DNA from: an uncultured archaeon
Lineage (GTDB): Archaea > Iainarchaeota > Iainarchaeia > Iainarchaeales > 0-14-0-20-30-16
Direction: 5' to 3'
NCBI GenBank assembly: GCA_964565725.1
Contig: CAZMGA010000018.1
Span: 2,887 to 11,761 of the forward strand
Length of the DNA stretch: 8,875 nucleotides
The notes beneath the pieces were generated by a model. That model was not told the DNA's origin. It did no database searches and saw only the letters and a program-made list of their open reading frames with translations. Below are positions 1 to 8,605 of the stretch, piece after piece (positions within the stretch are counted from its first letter, which is position 1; every line of letters starts with the position of its first letter). The translations under genes were made by a program, and so were the position numbers.

Positions 1-896
1 ATTATCAAAATTATAATAATTATCAAAGTTATAATAATTATCAATCTTATAATGCAAATGATTTTGATTTTGAAAGCATATTTAAACAATTTGGTTTTGG
101 TTTTGATGATTCAGATAATCTATTTAGTAATAGAAGGCAAAGAAAAAACACATCTTCAGATTTGCAATATAATTTAGAAATTGATTTGGAAGATTCTTAT
201 TATGGTAATACTAAAAAAATAAAAATACCTACTCAAAAAACTTGTAAACATTGTAATGGTAATGGATCCGAACCAGGGCATTTAAAAATTTGCCCAAAAT
301 GTGATGGTTCTGGTAAATTAAAAAAAGTAGTTTCTAGTTTATTTGGACAAATGGTTACTATAGTACAATGTGATGCTTGTCATGGATTAGGAAAAATTTC
401 AGATAAAAAATGTGAAGAATGTAAAGGTAAAGGTATTATATCTGGTGAAAAAATATTAGATGTGAAAATTCCTAAAGGTGTAGTTACAAATACAGTTTTA
501 AGGCTATCTAAAGAAGGTTTTAATGAAGGTAATTTGTATATTAATATAATTGTAAAAAAACATCCTTATTTTTCAGTTCAACAAGATGATATTTATGTTA
601 ATGAAAACATAAATTTGTTAACTGCTTTAAATGGAGGAGAAATTAAAGTTAAAACTATTAAAGGTTTTGCAGATTTAAAAATTCCTGCCGGTACTCAAAA
701 TAATACTACTTTTAAAATGAAAGGTCTAGGTATGCCAAATTTAAATTCTTCAAATTATGGCAATCAATATGTTAAAGTAAATATTGAAATTCCTAATTTA
801 ACTAAGGAACAAAAAGAACAAATAGAAGAAATATTATCCAATACTAAAAAACAAGAAAAATCCAAAAAAAAGAAAAGTTTTTTTAGTAAAAATTAA
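1..896 (+). CDS. dnaJ: Chaperone DnaJ (class A / type I), 5'-truncated by the window edge. Codons are in phase with position 3 and the stop is TAA at 894-896.
   Basis: The reading frame is open from position 3. Four zinc-finger motifs are present (CKHCNGNG, CPKCDGSG, CDACHGLG, CEECKGKG; nt 243-434). They are followed by the typical DnaJ C-terminal beta-domains (ILDVKIPKGV..., IKVKTIKG.ADLKIPAGTQNNTTFKMKGLGMP). Upstream lie an FGFGFDD remnant of the G/F region and a Y/Q/N-rich linker. The TTG at 162 in the ORF track is only an internal codon. Confidence 0.9.
   Translation, partial: YQNYNNYQSYNNYQSYNANDFDFESIFKQFGFGFDDSDNLFSNRRQRKNTSSDLQYNLEIDLEDSYYGNTKKIKIPTQKTCKHCNGNGSEPGHLKICPKCDGSGKLKKVVSSLFGQMVTIVQCDACHGLGKISDKKCEECKGKGIISGEKILDVKIPKGVVTNTVLRLSKEGFNEGNLYINIIVKKHPYFSVQQDDIYVNENINLLTALNGGEIKVKTIKGFADLKIPAGTQNNTTFKMKGLGMPNLNSSNYGNQYVKVNIEIPNLTKEQKEQIEEILSNTKKQEKSKKKKSFFSKN
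2..55 (+). repeat. 18-bp tandem repeat x3 inside dnaJ, encoding the hexapeptide YQ(N/S)YN(N/A). It may continue upstream of the window.
   Basis: Units are 2-19 ttatcaaaattataataa, 20-37 ttatcaaagttataataa and 38-55 ttatcaatcttataatgc. They are in frame with dnaJ. Confidence 0.8.
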
Positions 897-2195: not shown

Positions 2196-2972
2196 TTAAT
2201 TAGTACTCTTATTTTTCAAAATAATTTTATTTACTTTCCCTACTCTTTTTCTTTCTATTAAATCTTGCCTTTCTAATTTATTTAATATCTTAGATAAATG
2301 GCTTTTTTTGAGGTTTAATAAATTAGCAATTTCTTGTTGTGTTAAATTTTTGTTTTTAATTAAATTTAATATGTTTTTTTGTGTGTTATCTAAAAATTTT
2401 AAATTTTTGTTTTTAGCAATATTTTGTTTTTTATAATAAAAATATATACCTAAAATAATTATTAATAATACAATGGAAATAATTAATCCAAAAAGAAAAT
2501 TTAAATATTTTGTTTTATTTTCATAAACTAGATATAAAATAAAATTTTCTTTTGTATTATAAATATATTTATCATTATCTATTGAATAATCTGAATTTAT
2601 TTTCAAAACTTTAATATCTGATTTTATACTTATTTTTGTTTCATCCAATATTTCAAAATCCAAAGTTTTTTCTAAGGTATTTTTATTTTCTAAAAACTTT
2701 GTACCTTTATATTTTAAAATTAAAGTACCTTTATTGGAATAAACATAAAGTTTTGAATCATTAATTTTATAATTCAAGTCAGGTAATCCTTTAATATAAA
2801 TTAATTCTTGAAAATCAGGCAAATACATTTCAAAATTAGAATTATAATAAATAGTATAATCTATATAAGGAGTAAAATTATGGACGTCTACAAATATTTC
2901 ATTATTTGCAAATATTAGTGGTAAATTAAATAATAAAAATATAAATAATAAAAACTTTAAATTATTACTCAT
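2196..2972 (-). CDS. Membrane-anchored winged-helix (MarR/ArsR/TrmB-like) DNA-binding protein, 258 aa. Layout: signal peptide, extracytoplasmic domain, TM helix, cytoplasmic wHTH.
   Basis: The preferred start is the ATG at 2972 (MSNNLKFLLFIFLLFNLPLIFA|NN, a classical signal peptide). The extracytoplasmic region is about 155 aa. The TM helix NFLFGLIISIVLLIIILGIYFYY (nt 2433-2501) is followed by a basic KKQNIAKNKN flank, consistent with positive-inside. The C-terminal sequence LDNTQKNILNLIKNKNLTQQEIANLLNLKKSHLSKILNKLERQDLIERKRVGKVNKIIL (nt 2214-2399) fits helix-turn-helix plus wing. Confidence 0.8.
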   Translation of the reverse strand: MSNNLKFLLFIFLLFNLPLIFANNEIFVDVHNFTPYIDYTIYYNSNFEMYLPDFQELIYIKGLPDLNYKINDSKLYVYSNKGTLILKYKGTKFLENKNTLEKTLDFEILDETKISIKSDIKVLKINSDYSIDNDKYIYNTKENFILYLVYENKTKYLNFLFGLIISIVLLIIILGIYFYYKKQNIAKNKNLKFLDNTQKNILNLIKNKNLTQQEIANLLNLKKSHLSKILNKLERQDLIERKRVGKVNKIILKNKSTN

Positions 2973-3072
2973 AATTATATAAAAATAATTACATTTAAAA
3001 ATAGTAATTGTGGGCTTAACTTTATGAGTTAAAAAATAACTATTTATAAACATTTCTATATTTATATTATAT
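2973..3072. promoter_or_regulatory. Divergent promoter region with TATA-like boxes about 26 nt from each start codon. No SD is present on either side, suggesting leaderless mRNAs.
   Basis: On the plus strand, TTTATAAA at 3043-3050 is centred about 26 nt before the ATG at 3073. On the minus strand, TATTTTTAAA (complement of 2994-3003) is centred about 26 nt before the ATG at 2972. AT-richness makes chance matches likely. Confidence 0.35.
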
Positions 3073-4263
3073 ATGATTGAGAGAAATTATTTAGATTATT
3101 TAATTAAAGGATTATTTTTATTTTTTTCTGTATTTCTAATTCTTTCTATAGTAAATGCCTATAATTTGAATTATGAAATTTATCCAGAATCTAATAATTT
3201 AACCTTACAAAGTAATTCTAACTATAGTTTAAATGTTTTTTATAAATTAAATACTACAACTCCATTAAACTTTAGTTTTGATGTAATTTGTCCAGAAGGG
3301 ATTGAAGTAAATAATATTACTAATATAAAATCCTATTTAGCTTTTAAAATAAAATTAAATTTTAGAGTAAAAGATATAAAGGAAGGAAGTTACCCTATAA
3401 TTTTAAGAACTAAAGTTTTATATAATGGAAAATTAAATGTAAGAGATACAATTTTAAATTTGAATGTTGAAAAAAATTCTGGACAAATATTCTTTTCATC
3501 TGATTTTAGAAATGATTTACCAGAATTAGAATTGATAAATATATCTCAAACAAATTTTATAATAGATTCTAATTCAAGTACTTTTTTTCAATTTAATTTA
3601 AAAAACTTAGGTTCTGCTAGTTCATATATTTTGGAATCTGAAATTAATTCTTTAGACAAAAATAAAATTAATATAATTTACAGTGAAAAAATATTTGATT
3701 TACAAAATAACGAAAGCAAAACTGTTTTAATAAATGTTGATTTTAATAATTATAATTTAGAATACACATCTATTGATTTTTTTGCTATAGAAAATAGTAC
3801 TAATAAAAAATATTTTTTAGGTAGAGTGAATTTTGTTTTAAATATTCCTAAAATAGATGTTTTTTATAACAAAGATTTAAATTTAATTTTAATTACAAAT
3901 AATGGTTTAGATAAAGTAAATTTAGATTTAAATAATAATATATATTCTGAAAATGTAAACTTGATTCCTGGGCAAATATTAACAATAAATTTAGACGAAA
4001 ATATTATTGACTACAATGTTTCTATGAATAATAAATTAATTTCTAGTTTTGTATTTGAAAAAGAAGATAAATTTTTAGATGCTAAAAAAAATAAAGATTT
4101 AAACTTTTCAGGCGTTGCTGGATTTTTTTCTTTAAGTGAAGGTTCAATATATTTTGGAATTACAATATTAATTTTAATAATATTTATTTTAATAATTAGA
4201 AAATTATTTTTTACAAATAGTATTTTTGGGAAATCAATATCAGTTAAAAATATTAAATTGTAA
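3073..4263 (+). CDS. Cell-surface protein of 396 aa: signal peptide, about three beta-sandwich-like (CARDB/NEW3-like by pattern) modules, and a C-terminal TM anchor.
   Basis: The N-terminal hydrophobic segment LFLFFSVFLILSIVNA|YN is followed by repeated beta-strand-pattern modules (e.g. FIIDSNSSTFFQFNLKNLGSASSYILESE). There are 11 N-x-S/T sequons. The C-terminal TM helix IYFGITILILIIFILII (nt about 4144-4206) is followed by a basic tail RK...K..K. Confidence 0.8.
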   Translation: MIERNYLDYLIKGLFLFFSVFLILSIVNAYNLNYEIYPESNNLTLQSNSNYSLNVFYKLNTTTPLNFSFDVICPEGIEVNNITNIKSYLAFKIKLNFRVKDIKEGSYPIILRTKVLYNGKLNVRDTILNLNVEKNSGQIFFSSDFRNDLPELELINISQTNFIIDSNSSTFFQFNLKNLGSASSYILESEINSLDKNKINIIYSEKIFDLQNNESKTVLINVDFNNYNLEYTSIDFFAIENSTNKKYFLGRVNFVLNIPKIDVFYNKDLNLILITNNGLDKVNLDLNNNIYSENVNLIPGQILTINLDENIIDYNVSMNNKLISSFVFEKEDKFLDAKKNKDLNFSGVAGFFSLSEGSIYFGITILILIIFILIIRKLFFTNSIFGKSISVKNIKL

Positions 4264-4282: not shown

Positions 4283-6778
4283 TTAAACTATTTTTTTACC
4301 TGTAAAACAATCAAACATAATTGTTTCTTTTGTATCTAAATTGGTAATTAAAAACTCTGGTTTTAATATAGTTTCTATTTCATCTATTTTTATAGTATCC
4401 CACAAAGTACCTAAAATATTTCTAACGGTTTCAAATGTTGCTTTACTATCTAAAATATCTTCTTTATTTATTGGTTCTTCAATTAATTCTATTTTTTCAA
4501 AAGAACTTAATAATTTGTGAATTGGATTAGTAGTAATTTCTAAATTTTTTATTAAAAAGTATACGTTTTTTATACCTCTTTTTTCTTTTCTTAACAATCC
4601 CAAACTAATAAATCTTTCCATAGTATTTTTTAATTTTACATCTCCAAATGAAAATTTATCTTTTAAATAATCATTATCAAAGCCTTTTTTTTCTGGCAAG
4701 TGCAATAATATTCTTATATCATCCGCTTCCAAAGTTCTTAATATATTTAATCCTTCTGAATAAGCAAAATTTTCTCCAACAAAATGAATAAATTCTAATT
4801 TTACAGTATCTATATAACAAGAGTTCTTTACAAAGCTTCCATCTTTTTTATGTGATCTATAATTTACTTTAAATATTGGTCTATATACGTGATTTATATT
4901 AAAATTCATCCAACCCAAACTTCTTTTTACCAGTCCTGTAATTTCTTCTTCGTCTACTTGTGGTTCTACAATTTTATATGATATTTTTTCTTCAACAAAT
5001 TCTGCATCATCTTCATCATTTTTAGGCATGAAAAATTTACCTTTGTTTTCTGTAATTCCATTGTTTAATAAATTTTTAATAAATATTTCATATGTAATAT
5101 CTGTTTTATATTTCATATTCATGATTTTTAATAATGTTTTTAATGAATGTTCATCTAATTCTTCAAATTGTTTTAATTTATGTTTTGTAATACTCATCAT
5201 TAATTCTATTACTTCTTCTTTTGTAAATTCTTTTTGAGTTTCATTTGTTTGTATTGCTCTACCTTCATGTTGACTCATTCTTGGTCTTACAGTCATCACA
5301 AAAGCTCTAGAAGTTGTTTCAACTCTATCTGCTAAAATTGGAATTCCTACACTTAATTGTTTTATAAAAGAAGGATCTTTGAAATTTTTAGGAACTACTG
5401 TTGGCATTCTTTTAAATACTGCTTTAATATCATCATCAAATACTAATTTATAAGTTATTAAAGTACCTACTTGTGATAAAACTCTTGAATCTATTGCTGA
5501 AGGTTGTTGTGTTGCTATTACTAAAGAACAACCTGGTTTTCTTCCTTGTTTTACATATTCTATAATTGCTTTAGATGCTGGTGTTGCTAAAGACCCCGAA
5601 GGTATTAATGTGTGCGCTTCATCTAAAAATAACCATGTTGGTGGAATATCATTTTCTAAATCAATTTTTAAATTCGATGAAAATTCTTTTGTAGATTCTT
5701 TTCTTGAATTTACTTTTCTTGCATTTAAAACTCTTCTTGCTAATATTCCTACTAATAAAGCAGAAACATTTTCATCTAAAAAACTAGTATCTATAATTGT
5801 TAATTGTCCAGGTACAGATAATTCCATTAATGGAGTTCCTCTTTTAGAAAAAATTCCCCATGTTTTTGCAGCCTCAAATCTAGAAACTAAAGCCCTTATA
5901 GATTCTTTTCTATAACCTTTTTCTTTAGAGTTTAATTCAGCATCATTTTCTAAACAAAAAATTATATCATTTATATCAAAATTATCTTCTTTTGGTTTAA
6001 ATAACAACCCTTTAGTAGTTCTAAAACCATCTCTTACTTTTTTAATTACTTTTTCTAATAACAAACCAGATGGAGAAAATCTATCTATTGTAAAAGTTAA
6101 GGCCCAATCTTCAGATGTTAAAAATGCGGGTTGTATAGTAATAACAGAATCATAAGTTTCTTTAGGTATTTTTTCTGTGGCTCCTTCAGGTACAAAAACC
6201 ATAACATTATTCAAGCCTTTAGGTTTTAAATTATAATTTTCTAACATTTCAATTTCTTTTTCTTCTTTATTAGGGTATTTCATAGACCAAAATACACCTA
6301 TAGGATCAATCACTATTTGCCCTACATTTTTATTTTTTAATGCTAATTCTTCAGCAATAACTCCTAATATGTATGATTTACCCGAACCTCTTGATCCACA
6401 TACAAAAAAAACTTGTGGGTCTAAAGAATCAAAATAAATATCTTTTTGAGGGTAATCATCATTAACTTTACCTAAATATAATGTTCCTTCTTCACCATAT
6501 TTTTTTAAAACTGATTTTTTTCTACCCACTATTACATGATTAGTTTCTGGATTTTCTAAAAAAGTTAATTCTGCTTTTTCTACAATTTTATTTTTATTTA
6601 TTTTTTCTTCTTCATTTTCAACATCATCAGAAGCTTCGCTTTCATTTTCTTTTAAAGAATTTTCTTCTTCATTTAAATTATTGTTTTCTTCTAATTCTTC
6701 TTCTTTTTCAACAATATGTTTAGAATCTTCATTTTTTTCATTATTATCTGTATTTAAAGTGTCAAATATATCAAACAT
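4283..6778 (-). CDS. HerA/FtsK-superfamily P-loop ATPase (DUF87 / COG0433-like), 831 aa, with an acidic N-terminal tail and a long C-terminal extension carrying a winged helix.
   Basis: The Walker A motif is VCGSRGSGKSY (nt 6374-6397), followed by the HerA-like IVIDPIGVF. The Walker B motif is WLFLDEAHTLIP (nt 5612-5635). The HerA-type motif GRKPGCSLVIATQQPSAIDSRVLSQVGTLITYKL and the downstream VRPRMSQHEGR are also present. Residues about 10-66 are E/N/D-rich and low complexity. Residues about 515-831 have no motif I recognise except a wHTH-like segment (nt 4544-4729). Confidence 0.88.
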   Translation of the reverse strand: MFDIFDTLNTDNNEKNEDSKHIVEKEEELEENNNLNEEENSLKENESEASDDVENEEEKINKNKIVEKAELTFLENPETNHVIVGRKKSVLKKYGEEGTLYLGKVNDDYPQKDIYFDSLDPQVFFVCGSRGSGKSYILGVIAEELALKNKNVGQIVIDPIGVFWSMKYPNKEEKEIEMLENYNLKPKGLNNVMVFVPEGATEKIPKETYDSVITIQPAFLTSEDWALTFTIDRFSPSGLLLEKVIKKVRDGFRTTKGLLFKPKEDNFDINDIIFCLENDAELNSKEKGYRKESIRALVSRFEAAKTWGIFSKRGTPLMELSVPGQLTIIDTSFLDENVSALLVGILARRVLNARKVNSRKESTKEFSSNLKIDLENDIPPTWLFLDEAHTLIPSGSLATPASKAIIEYVKQGRKPGCSLVIATQQPSAIDSRVLSQVGTLITYKLVFDDDIKAVFKRMPTVVPKNFKDPSFIKQLSVGIPILADRVETTSRAFVMTVRPRMSQHEGRAIQTNETQKEFTKEEVIELMMSITKHKLKQFEELDEHSLKTLLKIMNMKYKTDITYEIFIKNLLNNGITENKGKFFMPKNDEDDAEFVEEKISYKIVEPQVDEEEITGLVKRSLGWMNFNINHVYRPIFKVNYRSHKKDGSFVKNSCYIDTVKLEFIHFVGENFAYSEGLNILRTLEADDIRILLHLPEKKGFDNDYLKDKFSFGDVKLKNTMERFISLGLLRKEKRGIKNVYFLIKNLEITTNPIHKLLSSFEKIELIEEPINKEDILDSKATFETVRNILGTLWDTIKIDEIETILKPEFLITNLDTKETIMFDCFTGKKIV

Positions 6779-6829
6779 AATTTATAAACAATGCAAAAAT
6801 TTATATTTAATTCTCTTTTATTTATATTA
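6779..6829. promoter_or_regulatory. 51-bp divergent control region between the ATPase and the pilin-like operon, with a central near-palindromic TATA element equidistant from both ATGs.
   Basis: AAAAATTTATATTT spans 6795-6808. Its TATA core at 6800-6808 is centred at about 6804, which is 26 nt from the ATG at 6830 (plus) and 26 nt from the ATG at 6778 (minus). No SD is present on either side. A second TTTATAAA at 6781-6788 is an alternative. Confidence 0.4.
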
Positions 6830-7369
6830 ATGAATAGATATTTTAATAATAAAGGTCAAGCAGATACTGTTTTTGAAGTTTTAATTGCAGTAATACTATT
6901 AGGTTTTGTTTTAACTATGGGTATTTATGCAATGAATACATTGTCTAATAATAAATGTTCTAAAACTATTGATTTAAAATTAAATGAATTAGTATCAAAT
7001 ATTGAAATATCTGCATCTGGTACATTAGTGTCTAAAGATTTCTTTTTTAGAATGGATAATTGTTTTGGAACTCAATATTCTGTTCAAATGCAAAAACAAA
7101 GTGGAGGTATGTGTAGTTCTTATTGTTTAGGCTCTACAGATTCATGTTATCTTTTGAAATATGAAAATCCCAAAGATAAAGTTTCACAAGTTAGATTTAG
7201 TTGTATTAATATATCTCCATCTTTACAAATAAATCCTACGAGTTGTGGAGAGACTATAGGTAATAATAATAATGTTGATTTTAATAATGGTGAATATAAT
7301 ATTACTAATAGTGCTTTTTCTACAGGTAGTACATTACCATATATTTGTATTAAAAAGGTAGATTCATAA
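6830..7369 (+). CDS. Archaeal type IV pilin-like protein with a class III signal peptide, 179 aa, and a cysteine-rich globular domain.
   Basis: MNRYFNNKG|QADTVFEVLIAVILLGFVLTMGIYAM has a short basic leader, the KG|Q prepilin-peptidase-type site and a hydrophobic helix of about 22 aa. The mature part has 8 Cys. The start at 6830 is preferred over the track's 6791 because class III leaders are short and the TATA spacing fits. Confidence 0.8.
   Translation: MNRYFNNKGQADTVFEVLIAVILLGFVLTMGIYAMNTLSNNKCSKTIDLKLNELVSNIEISASGTLVSKDFFFRMDNCFGTQYSVQMQKQSGGMCSSYCLGSTDSCYLLKYENPKDKVSQVRFSCINISPSLQINPTSCGETIGNNNNVDFNNGEYNITNSAFSTGSTLPYICIKKVDS
6842..6863 (+). repeat. One copy of a 22-nt exact direct repeat (tttaataataaaggtcaagcag). 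The second copy is at 8610-8631.
   Basis: The identical 22-mer encodes FNNKGQA at the processing site of both canonical pilin-like genes. The flanks diverge immediately. Confidence 0.85.
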
Positions 7370-8016
7370 TGATTGATTTTATTTTATCTAAAATGGGTAT
7401 ATTAATGTTCGCAGTTGCTTTTGCAAGCACTTTATTAATATTTTCCGCTTCAATTAAAGAAGTTTTTTTATCTGATGAATCAATTCAAATAAGTAATTTA
7501 GTTGCAAAACAAATAAAATATATGTCCGAATCTGAAAATTTATGCTCTTCTAAAAGAGTTTTATTGCCAAAATATATTGATATATTTGGATTATCTTCAG
7601 GTTCAAATTCAATTTATTACATTATGAATATTAGTAAATTAGAAACTGATGATGGATCTAATTTTGTTGTTTTTAATATGAGAGATAAAAGAAAAAATAA
7701 AATGATTGCATTAGAGAGTTTTAGAACAAACGCAAATGTTTGGTTTTATAATAATGATGCAATAATAGAATCCGATGTAAATATAGATCCCACAGAATAT
7801 AGGGCAATTTATTTATTGAAATATGTTGCTTCCGAAGATAGTATATTAAAAGACAATTTAGTTTTTGTGCCTTGTAAATTTGAACAAGGTAAACCAGATG
7901 GGGGGTATAAAGATTGTTATGATAAATTAGCTAAAATTAAAACTGACCCCGAATACGCTAATAAGTTTTATTGTGTGCCTACATCTGCATCTAATGATGG
8001 TGATGTTGATGAATAA
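7369..8016 (+). CDS. Pilin-operon protein of 215 aa with an N-terminal hydrophobic helix. It may be a minor pilin or an assembly factor, but its processing site is non-canonical.
   Basis: The ATG overlaps the upstream stop (TAATG at 7367-7371). The N-terminus is MIDFILSKMGILMFAVAFASTLLIF, with only a weak K-M-G motif. The rest is soluble with 4 Cys and an acidic C-terminal end. Confidence 0.7.
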   Translation: MIDFILSKMGILMFAVAFASTLLIFSASIKEVFLSDESIQISNLVAKQIKYMSESENLCSSKRVLLPKYIDIFGLSSGSNSIYYIMNISKLETDDGSNFVVFNMRDKRKNKMIALESFRTNANVWFYNNDAIIESDVNIDPTEYRAIYLLKYVASEDSILKDNLVFVPCKFEQGKPDGGYKDCYDKLAKIKTDPEYANKFYCVPTSASNDGDVDE

Positions 8017-8605
8017 AAAAGGTTTTATTGGTTCTATAGGAGATGATTTACCAAGTTTAATTCCTACCTTTTTTGCAATATTAATTTTTTTTACAGGTGT
8101 TGCTTTTGCATTTAACGCTATTAATGATAAAAATGATTATTTAAGTACTTATTTAGATTCTTTAACAATAGCAAAATCAGCATTAGGTGATGGTTCATTT
8201 TCAAGTTATGATGATTTTATAAACACCTCTAAAGATTTAACAGTAATGTCAAATTATATTTTTGGAGTTGTTTATCCTTTGACTACAATAAATTTGGATG
8301 ATATTTTTGAAGATAAAAGAAAATTTTTTATTACTGAATTTGATGAAGGTTTGGCTTTGTATTTTAATGATGGAATATATAAAGGAATAAAAAAATCTAA
8401 TAATCAATTTTCAGATATAAATGATTCTTCTGATTATAATGTTTATTTAGTTACCAGTGAAAATTTAAAACAAGATGTAGATAATGATTTTACTGAAGTG
8501 TTAGAAAATTTAAAAAATAAGGAATTTTTTCAATATGTTTATCCTGTAGAAATTTATACTACTAAAGGATTTTTAACTGCGTATTTAGTTATATTTGTGT
8601 GGTAA
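8009..8605 (+). CDS. Pilin-like protein of 198 aa with a putative class III signal peptide (MNKKG|F...).
   Basis: The ATG at 8009 overlaps the upstream stop (ATGAATAA). A GGTGAT SD at 7998-8003 precedes it. The N-terminus is MNKKGFIGSIGDDLPSLIPTFFAILIFFTGVAFAF, and the protein has no Cys. The track's start at 7973 would add a non-signal-like MCLHLHLMMVML extension overlapping the previous gene by 44 nt. Confidence 0.7.
   Translation: MNKKGFIGSIGDDLPSLIPTFFAILIFFTGVAFAFNAINDKNDYLSTYLDSLTIAKSALGDGSFSSYDDFINTSKDLTVMSNYIFGVVYPLTTINLDDIFEDKRKFFITEFDEGLALYFNDGIYKGIKKSNNQFSDINDSSDYNVYLVTSENLKQDVDNDFTEVLENLKNKEFFQYVYPVEIYTTKGFLTAYLVIFVW

Follow-up and report, generated by a model that had tools for sequence, protein, structure and literature searches.

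HerA proteins described so far, in HerA-NurA and in the Sir2-HerA, DUF4297-HerA and TdpAB systems, depend on a separate partner (NurA, Sir2, DUF4297 or TdpB). FtsK and SpoIIIE, ring-shaped DNA pumps of the superfamily that also includes HerA, carry a C-terminal gamma winged helix that reads KOPS or SRS sites, and TraB of Streptomyces conjugation is an FtsK-like motor whose C-terminal winged helix-turn-helix binds 8-bp clt repeats. Most archaea are without FtsK, and the clearance and orientation of their chromosomes at division are poorly understood; HerA has been suggested on comparative grounds as a possible FtsK substitute. Here we describe a gene of the HerA clade from an uncultured archaeon of the Iainarchaeota, located in an 8,875-nucleotide stretch of contig CAZMGA010000018.1 (hereafter the window, with a G+C content of ~22%), where it is the longest open reading frame (ORF; 4283..6778, minus strand).

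The 831-residue product has an established architecture consisting of a HerA-clade motor, an acidic disordered N-terminal tail and a 324-residue C-terminal extension. The HerA-type motor fold is known; what is new is a family of this clade whose distinctive head had not been described before. We tentatively propose that the gene encodes a housekeeping chromosomal DNA translocase carrying its own DNA-targeting head, because the protein is conserved, chromosomal and partnerless, is a target of inteins and bears a basic winged helix on a tether. The architecture of this translocase is well supported and its mechanism is one that we infer, so that we regard the proposal as quite possible and stop just short of calling it probable. 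The gene and the parts of its product are as follows.

4283..6778, minus strand: HerA-clade ATPase gene from the ORF list (831 amino acids, ATG start, stop codon at 4283-4285)
6584..6778, minus strand: acidic disordered tail, residues 1-65 (predicted local distance difference test, pLDDT, 32-52; charge -17)
6755..6772, minus strand: short linear motif DIFDTL, residues 3-8 (D-phi-F-[DE]-E-phi-(F/L)-G in homologues)
6419..6583, minus strand: small beta-rich N-domain, residues 66-120 (AlphaFold2 model; at the position of the HerA HAS-barrel, only ~55 residues)
5258..6418, minus strand: HerA/DUF87 P-loop ATPase core, residues 121-507 (Pfam, Foldseek, PDB alignment)
6374..6397, minus strand: Walker A motif GSRGSGKS, residues 128-135 (G128, G131, G133, K134 and S135 invariant in 99 sequences)
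5612..5635, minus strand: Walker B motif WLFLDEAH, residues 382-389 (W382, D386, E387 and H389 invariant in 99 sequences)
5021..5230, minus strand: wH-A, three helices and a beta-hairpin, residues 517-586 (AlphaFold2 model; winged-helix-like topology)
4985..5020, minus strand: acidic flexible linker, residues 587-598 (pLDDT <50)
4751..4984, minus strand: PepSY-like module 1, residues 599-676 (AlphaFold2 model; strand, helix, four or five strands)
4544..4750, minus strand: winged helix-turn-helix wH-B, residues 677-745 (AlphaFold2, Foldseek, Pfam matches of homologues, family profile)
4286..4516, minus strand: PepSY-like module 2 at the C-terminus, residues 755-831 (AlphaFold2 model; Pfam PepSY in homologues)

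An identical 831-residue protein is encoded on contigs of two independent runs (SRR27197504 and SRR16642441), which excludes an assembly chimera, and the N-terminal peptide MFDIFD is kept in close homologues, which supports the ATG start. The full-length AlphaFold2 model, computed with 99 homologues as input, has a mean pLDDT of 84.9 and limits disorder to residues 1-65, 508-516 and ~587-597. Modelled alone, residues 508-831 reached a pLDDT of 92.1 and a predicted template modelling score (pTM) of 0.70, and from residue 517 on show three helices and a hairpin (517-586), the acidic linker, module 1, the winged helix and module 2 in that order. A first reading made from the letters of the window (the sequence-only reading) had ended the core at VRPRMSQHEGR, which we find at residues 497-507, and had estimated the extension behind it at ~310 residues, against the 324 present. 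The same reading had proposed to survey the extension among homologues and had counted an extension unique to the contig, perhaps an artefact, among the outcomes that would speak against it. The extension is conserved and not contig-specific, and its presence in two assemblies together with its end-to-end alignment in 99 homologues rules the artefact out.

The classification as a HerA-type ATPase, made in the sequence-only reading, is borne out by Pfam and by structure. The HerA central domain (DUF87, PF01935) matches residues 126-350 (4.3e-14; 53.6 bits against a gathering threshold of 23.2) and was found in 35 of the 35 family members scanned, while the HerA_C (weak), FtsK-like and AAA models of Pfam score at or below threshold on the window protein. 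Foldseek against the PDB gave as best matches the HerA of T. kodakarensis from HerA-NurA (9x1m, 7.2e-19) and that of S. solfataricus (4d2i, 2e-17). The best 50 matches were all HerA-type chains, including those of the Sir2-HerA, DUF4297-HerA and TdpA complexes, with E-values to HerA hexamer subunits between 7e-19 and 1e-12. When the PDB was searched with phmmer, the region KQGRKPG...ATQQPS aligned with anti-phage and archaeal HerA proteins, the alignment with HerA 8xau covering the conserved GRK-G...SQRPS stretch, and the GRK-G and TQQPS motifs of HerA are intact. In all, the likeness to HerA covers the core fold, DUF87, both Walker motifs and GRK-G...TQQPS. In contrast to HerA, the present family has an N-domain of only ~55 residues at the position of the HAS-barrel and no linked partner nuclease or effector, and the 324-residue extension and the acidic tail are found only here when the family is set against the solved HerA proteins.

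This likeness raises the possibility that the gene is the DNA-repair HerA of the lineage, that is, an end-resection translocase whose nuclease is encoded elsewhere and whose head recognises DNA ends or recruits that nuclease. The closest structures do come from HerA-NurA, and the HerA repair equivalogs NF040819 and NF040937 are the best NCBIfam matches, but both miss their cut-offs widely (46.5 bits against 970 and 37.8 against 800). Because these scores amount to ~5% of the cut-offs, we consider the protein HerA-like but not orthologous to the HerA proteins of repair or defence. Neighbouring genes were annotated with Pfam in seven loci (L001-L004 and L085-L087), in the window and in seven cluster representatives (six recurrent clusters and a short paralogue), and were clustered without annotation in the remaining loci; nurA, mre11 and rad50 are absent from all those annotated. 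With only ~55 residues at the position of the HAS-barrel as a further point against it, a repair HerA appears unlikely.

The ~55-residue N-domain contains strands at residues 82-84, 99-105 and 113-117 (pLDDT >90) and has no match to the HAS-barrel model in a Pfam scan of the window protein. L71, G85, R86, L100 and G103 are invariant in a 35-sequence alignment, G85 and G103 also in the 99-sequence alignment. The tail that precedes it, described in the sequence-only reading as acidic and atypical for HerA, proved to be a feature of the whole family (median charge -18, length 9 to 298 residues). Of the 99 homologues, 85 have a motif D-phi-F-[DE]-E-phi-(F/L)-G within their first 70 residues, and only 4 have it in a control window; this N-terminal peptide is probably a docking site for some cellular partner. 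Inspection of the sequence, with no formal prediction, revealed no evident hydrophobic segment or membrane anchor at the N-terminus.

The extension contains a winged helix (wH-B). In the AlphaFold2 model it comprises helices at 685-692, 702-708 and 713-725, a short strand at 700-701 and a hairpin of strands 729-734 and 737-742, all with pLDDT >90, and these elements follow the H1-S1-H2-H3-S2-wing-S3 order of the winged helix fold as assigned by DSSP. Foldseek matched it to winged helix regulators over 63-74 residues (root mean square deviation 1.9-2.9 A, probability 1.0), among them ST1889, SqrR, HlyU, CzrA, MarR and TubR at ~2.2 A over 66-70 residues. Homologue segments aligned to wH-B score above the Pfam gathering thresholds with HTH_27 (1.3e-7), TrmB (2.3e-7) and IclR (3.4e-6), the MarR match being weaker than these three. 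A profile of the extension built from 30 sequences matched MecI/BlaI (8.9e-5), an Lrs14-like protein (1.6e-4) and ST1889 (4.4e-4) in the PDB, as well as HlyU and many ArsR/SmtB and MarR proteins (to 1e-2), and every one of these matches falls on profile positions 201-270, which correspond to wH-B. This segment, which the sequence-only reading had proposed as a winged helix-turn-helix, is thus a true winged helix of the MarR/TrmB/BlaI/ArsR type, as judged from the model and the family profiles. The peptide quoted in that reading is present, with its coordinates 3-6 nucleotides off: 4544-4729 encodes EADD...FLIKN, and the leading L lies at 4730-4732. The net charge of wH-B is positive, with basic residues enriched at 715, 717, 718, 722 and 726, and conservation of basic positions is seen both where helix 3 begins and in the wing. 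From these residues we infer that wH-B binds DNA through a basic recognition helix and wing.

On either side of wH-B the sequence-only reading had noted two beta-rich modules; both peptides are present, and their identity can now be corrected to duplicated PepSY-like domains. Module 1 is modelled as a strand (599-604), a helix (610-621) and strands at 626-643, 649-657, 662-667 and 670-674, with E662, S674 and G676 invariant in 99 sequences. Module 2 is modelled with helices at 755-762 and 782-792 and strands at 765-770, 796-813 and 819-823. The Pfam PepSY model (PF03413) scores above gathering at the C-terminal module in 7 of the 35 homologues (P0033 2.7e-8, 34 bits against a cut-off of 24; P0059 7.8e-8; P0079 1.2e-6), while the module 2 sequence of the window protein itself has no PepSY match. 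Indeed, Pfam had no match to the extension of the window protein, searched whole or segment by segment, and the assignments come from family-level searches. Comparison of the two modules with hhalign gave a probability of 96% (E 4e-9, 58 columns), against 1-2% for module-versus-winged-helix controls, which indicates that the PepSY-like, winged helix, PepSY-like arrangement arose by internal duplication. In the model, module 1, the winged helix and module 2 form one compact head (residues 599-831). As in PepSY of M4 peptidase propeptides, YpeB and PepSY_TM proteins, a helix precedes an antiparallel sheet, and the terminal 'IDA-TGK' motif agrees as well. However, PepSY domains of the classical kind regulate peptidases and are secreted or associated with membranes, whereas here they are duplicated, fused to a cytoplasmic-type ATPase and placed around a winged helix. 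The sequence of the window protein shows no evident signal peptide and no evident membrane segment (again with no formal prediction), so the extracytoplasmic context of PepSY is not found here.

The part of the extension that precedes the head consists of wH-A and the acidic linker. In the model, wH-A contains helices at 520-538, 543-557 and 563-572 and strands at 576-578 and 581-583 (pLDDT 82-92); N554, K556 and Y557 are nearly invariant in 99 sequences, and the domain is missing in the shorter relative P0183. Over residues 517-586 the extension family profile has no match to known domains. Comparison of this segment with the winged helix at 677-745 by hhalign was not significant (10%), and we therefore term wH-A winged-helix-like by topology only. 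The acidic linker that follows varies between 10 and 61 residues across the family (median charge -6), which points to a tethered head.

A head of this composition could serve another purpose than DNA targeting. The winged helix and the PepSY-like modules might be regulatory or protein-interaction domains, governing ATPase activity or the oligomeric state or binding protein or RNA, in which case the motor might act on a substrate other than chromosomal double-stranded DNA. According to Pfam, PepSY binds proteins in a regulatory or inhibitory way, proteins are the ligands of many winged helices (those of ESCRT-II and cullins, for example), and in the compact model of the extension the winged helix surface could be partly buried. 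Set against this, the proteins that match the profile best are without exception bona fide DNA-binding repressors, both the wing and the recognition helix are basic and conserved, and to our knowledge DNA is the substrate of all HerA-clade motors characterised so far. We therefore hold a protein-interaction head to be doubtful.

The sequence-only reading had compared the extension with the gamma domain of FtsK. The architectural likeness stands: both proteins belong to the same superfamily and carry a winged helix C-terminal to the motor via a flexible linker. The specific similarity does not, since no Ftsk_gamma Pfam match was found on the window protein, its segments or the scanned homologues. 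The two also differ in clade, as the window protein has no match to FtsK_SpoIIIE (PF01580) and 7 of the 35 homologues match it below gathering (best 0.0024). Furthermore, the winged helix described here is of the MarR/TrmB/BlaI type and lies between PepSY-like modules, whereas that of FtsK is terminal. TraB, compared by description only, is likewise a ring translocase directed to specific DNA by a C-terminal winged helix-turn-helix, but it is plasmid-borne, of the FtsK clade and bacterial, while the present family is chromosomal, of the HerA clade and archaeal. By analogy only, the likeness to FtsK gamma and to TraB would be one of design, not of descent. In all, the observation reported in the sequence-only reading is confirmed as a whole, and of its interpretation the HerA clade, the conserved extension, the winged helix and the acidic tail hold while a specific relationship to FtsK gamma is not supported.

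A full-length search identified 771 homologues, ~100 of them with 42-46% identity over 90-100% coverage and mostly labelled Diapherotrites or Iainarchaeum. Scanning one genome per GTDB species yielded 276 relatives, the best 80 of which are almost all from Iainarchaeota and include the complete chromosomes CP064981 and CP010424. With a profile of the extension alone, a search of 1.84 billion representatives retrieved 409 clusters (190 at <=1e-10). Nine of the weaker matches were sampled: seven are DUF87 ATPases, the module is C-terminal in all, and some have an inserted DUF835. Named members of the family come from Hadarchaeales and Thermoplasmatota. BLASTP aligned a Hadarchaeales protein end to end (35% over 812 columns) as well as a 667-residue relative without the 517-586 domain and the tail (41% identity), and a Hadarchaeales-seeded search added MSBL1, Theionarchaea and Methanofastidiosa. 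The full architecture is thus present in hundreds of homologues from Iainarchaeota/Diapherotrites, Hadarchaeales, MSBL1, Theionarchaea, Methanofastidiosa and Thermoplasmatota. Three Thermoplasmatota proteins of ~1,200 residues (P0178, P0179 and P0269) carry DUF835 between the ATPase and the PepSY-wH-PepSY head. Databases label the homologues merely as ATP-binding or DUF87 proteins, and the family was not described in the literature that we searched for HerA with PepSY or a winged helix and for archaeal or Diapherotrites HerA.

Several homologues are interrupted by inteins. In P0007 and P0012 the insertion lies after GSGK, within Walker A (window residue 134). These two inteins are of 432 residues, have C...HN/S junctions and contain a LAGLIDADG homing endonuclease. 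Inteins were also seen in P0088, P0110, P0117, P0190, P0372 and at L010 15733-18153; in the short paralogue of L010 the intein interrupts the P-loop. Inteins favour essential replication and repair proteins. A mobile-element origin was considered and rejected: no phage sequence matched, the plasmid relatives are core-only and none carries the extension, and matches to PHROGs are limited to the generic ATPase core, mostly to the Walker B region or the C-terminal half. Taken together, the 276 GTDB relatives, the housekeeping neighbours (see below), the lack of phage matches, the core-only plasmid forms and the Walker A inteins point to a housekeeping character.

Gene neighbourhoods differ between lineages. 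In other Iainarchaeota the usual order is the ATPase, a 275-residue protein with no Pfam match, L44e, a membrane protein, SMC and a Lon-like protein, often with an inserted GlmU/GlmM/GlmS block. SMC lies on the same strand, at a median of ~4.8 kb downstream, in 19 of the 39 Iainarchaeota loci with at least 8 kb of downstream sequence. A protein of ~100 residues with no Pfam match (L003 11167-11463, YKGRLCDSNLSYEFIP...; cluster 7, in 18 loci) often follows the ATPase on the same strand in Iainarchaeota, directly in some loci. Two loci of Candidatus ainarchaeum sp. (L009 12469-16402 and L010) show, by eye, a NYN/LabA-like ORF of 152 residues downstream of the long-form gene, then two ORFs of ~160 residues, an ORF with a MinD-like P-loop N-terminus and an LSm-like ORF, and finally a 432-residue core-only paralogue without tail and extension. 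The neighbours in Hadarchaeales, Methanofastidiosa and Theionarchaea are unrelated housekeeping genes.

In the window and in the loci of its nearest relatives (L005-L007) the ATPase gene is flanked by pilin-like ORFs, a 396-residue protein, a membrane protein with a MarR-type domain and DnaJ. The pilin-like ORFs (6791-7369, 7369-8016 and 7973-8605, plus strand, plus one from 8607) are divergent and directly upstream of the ATPase, and their hydrophobic N-termini resemble archaeal class III (type IV pilin-like) signals, for example NNKG/QADTVFEVLIAV and KKG/FIGS. They have no Pfam matches and are conserved solely in L005 and L007, and the window contains no pilus ATPase or platform gene. On the other side, the ORF at 2196-3053 (minus strand) encodes 285 residues that begin with a signal or anchor, include another membrane segment and end in a winged helix-turn-helix of MarR/Crp type (3e-9), and from its sequence looks like a membrane-tethered transcription regulator. 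The adjoining 396-residue ORF (3073-4263, plus strand) has no Pfam match, and both genes are conserved in L005-L007. A chaperone cluster beside the locus, with DnaJ (162-896, plus strand, cut by the window edge) and DnaK, GrpE and small-HSP genes (L001 7728-11356), is ordinary housekeeping. We rejected neighbours as a guide to function, the pilin-like cluster being restricted to the nearest relatives and the Iainarchaeota neighbours not being conserved across phyla.

The same survey bears on a role in anti-phage defence (as in Sir2-HerA, DUF4297-HerA or MADS) or as another mobile-element ATPase, which we consider highly improbable. PADLOC matched its HerA models (1e-20) and mad8 (9e-18), but all matches except mad8 (residues 102-445) are confined to the C-terminal part of the ATPase core, within residues 306-483. 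In the loci examined, the ATPase gene has no linked nuclease, Sir2 gene or other effector gene, and among the neighbours PADLOC found no match to defence effector models, with one neighbour matching Csa3, CARF3 and CasR weakly at its winged helix-turn-helix region. A core-only relative of 389 residues and 29% identity does occur on a Haloplanus sp. HW8-1 plasmid (NZ_CP098519.1 116089-117258; L088), between a BREX ATP-binding protein and genes for a PD-(D/E)XK nuclease and a helicase in a BREX-like island, so that short forms of this ATPase core may serve defence islands. The 276 species representatives with their housekeeping neighbours, the lack of phage matches and the absence of the extension from every plasmid copy argue against defence for the full-length family. 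A pilus, secretion or DNA-uptake ATPase of the VirB4/CedB kind working with the divergent pilin-like genes is suggested by at least three ORFs with class-III-like signals conserved in L005 and L007, but is scarcely credible given that this adjacency is limited to relatives of 69-74% identity and absent in other Iainarchaeota loci and other phyla, that the VirB4 model of NCBIfam scores a negligible 16.7 bits against 643, and that no membrane segment is evident (no formal prediction) and no PilC/FlaJ-like partner lies nearby.

We return to the proposal of a chromosomal translocase with its own targeting head. Such a protein would assemble into a hexameric ring, as do the solved HerA proteins, and pump double-stranded DNA through its pore, each subunit bearing a tethered DNA-binding head in place of the separate partner of HerA. 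The winged helix on DNA would either serve to load the ring on the chromosome or influence the place and direction of its action, the duplicated PepSY-like modules would be the scaffold that presents it, and the N-terminal peptide would dock the motor on some cellular partner. Its role would lie in chromosome maintenance, most likely in the segregation or clearance of DNA at division as for FtsK, with defence and conjugation unlikely. A link to chromosome biology is suggested by SMC downstream in 19 of the 39 Iainarchaeota loci, a weak linkage, and by the MinD-like gene in L009.

Several points weigh against this proposal. DNA binding, hexamer formation, translocation and sequence specificity are ascribed to the window protein by analogy. 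Its own wH-B has no Pfam match, so that the assignment comes from family profiles and the AlphaFold2 model, and contacts between proteins are another function of winged helices. PepSY domains typically lie outside the cytoplasm, and we know of no DNA role for them. The gamma domain of FtsK (2j5p) matches the family profile with an E-value of 0.27, weaker than ~35 other winged helix proteins, and, unlike FtsK, the family has no N-terminal membrane domain. The SMC linkage is limited to one phylum, where inherited synteny is possible; neither the clade of the window itself nor the examined loci of Hadarchaeales, Theionarchaea and Methanofastidiosa show it. A more specific version of the proposal, in which the family is the long-sought archaeal counterpart of FtsK in function, a hexameric chromosomal pump on a HerA chassis, its PepSY-wH-PepSY head, of a new type, reading polar chromosomal motifs and so orienting the pumping and its N-terminal peptide anchoring it at the division or segregation machinery, seems to us improbable as it stands; if true, such anchoring would explain the recurrent proximity of SMC.

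Should the head prove unable to bind DNA, the family would still be a widespread uncharacterised ATPase, of ordinary interest. Should it bind DNA, duplicated PepSY-like modules would for the first time be seen in a cytoplasmic, DNA-associated role. Both the head (residues 599-831) and the short N-terminal peptide are defined and open to direct expression and assay. The family is a concrete candidate, a HerA-clade motor with a tethered winged-helix head that is near-universal in one DPANN phylum and occurs in several euryarchaeal lineages, and it offers a handle on a possible archaeal analogue of FtsK.

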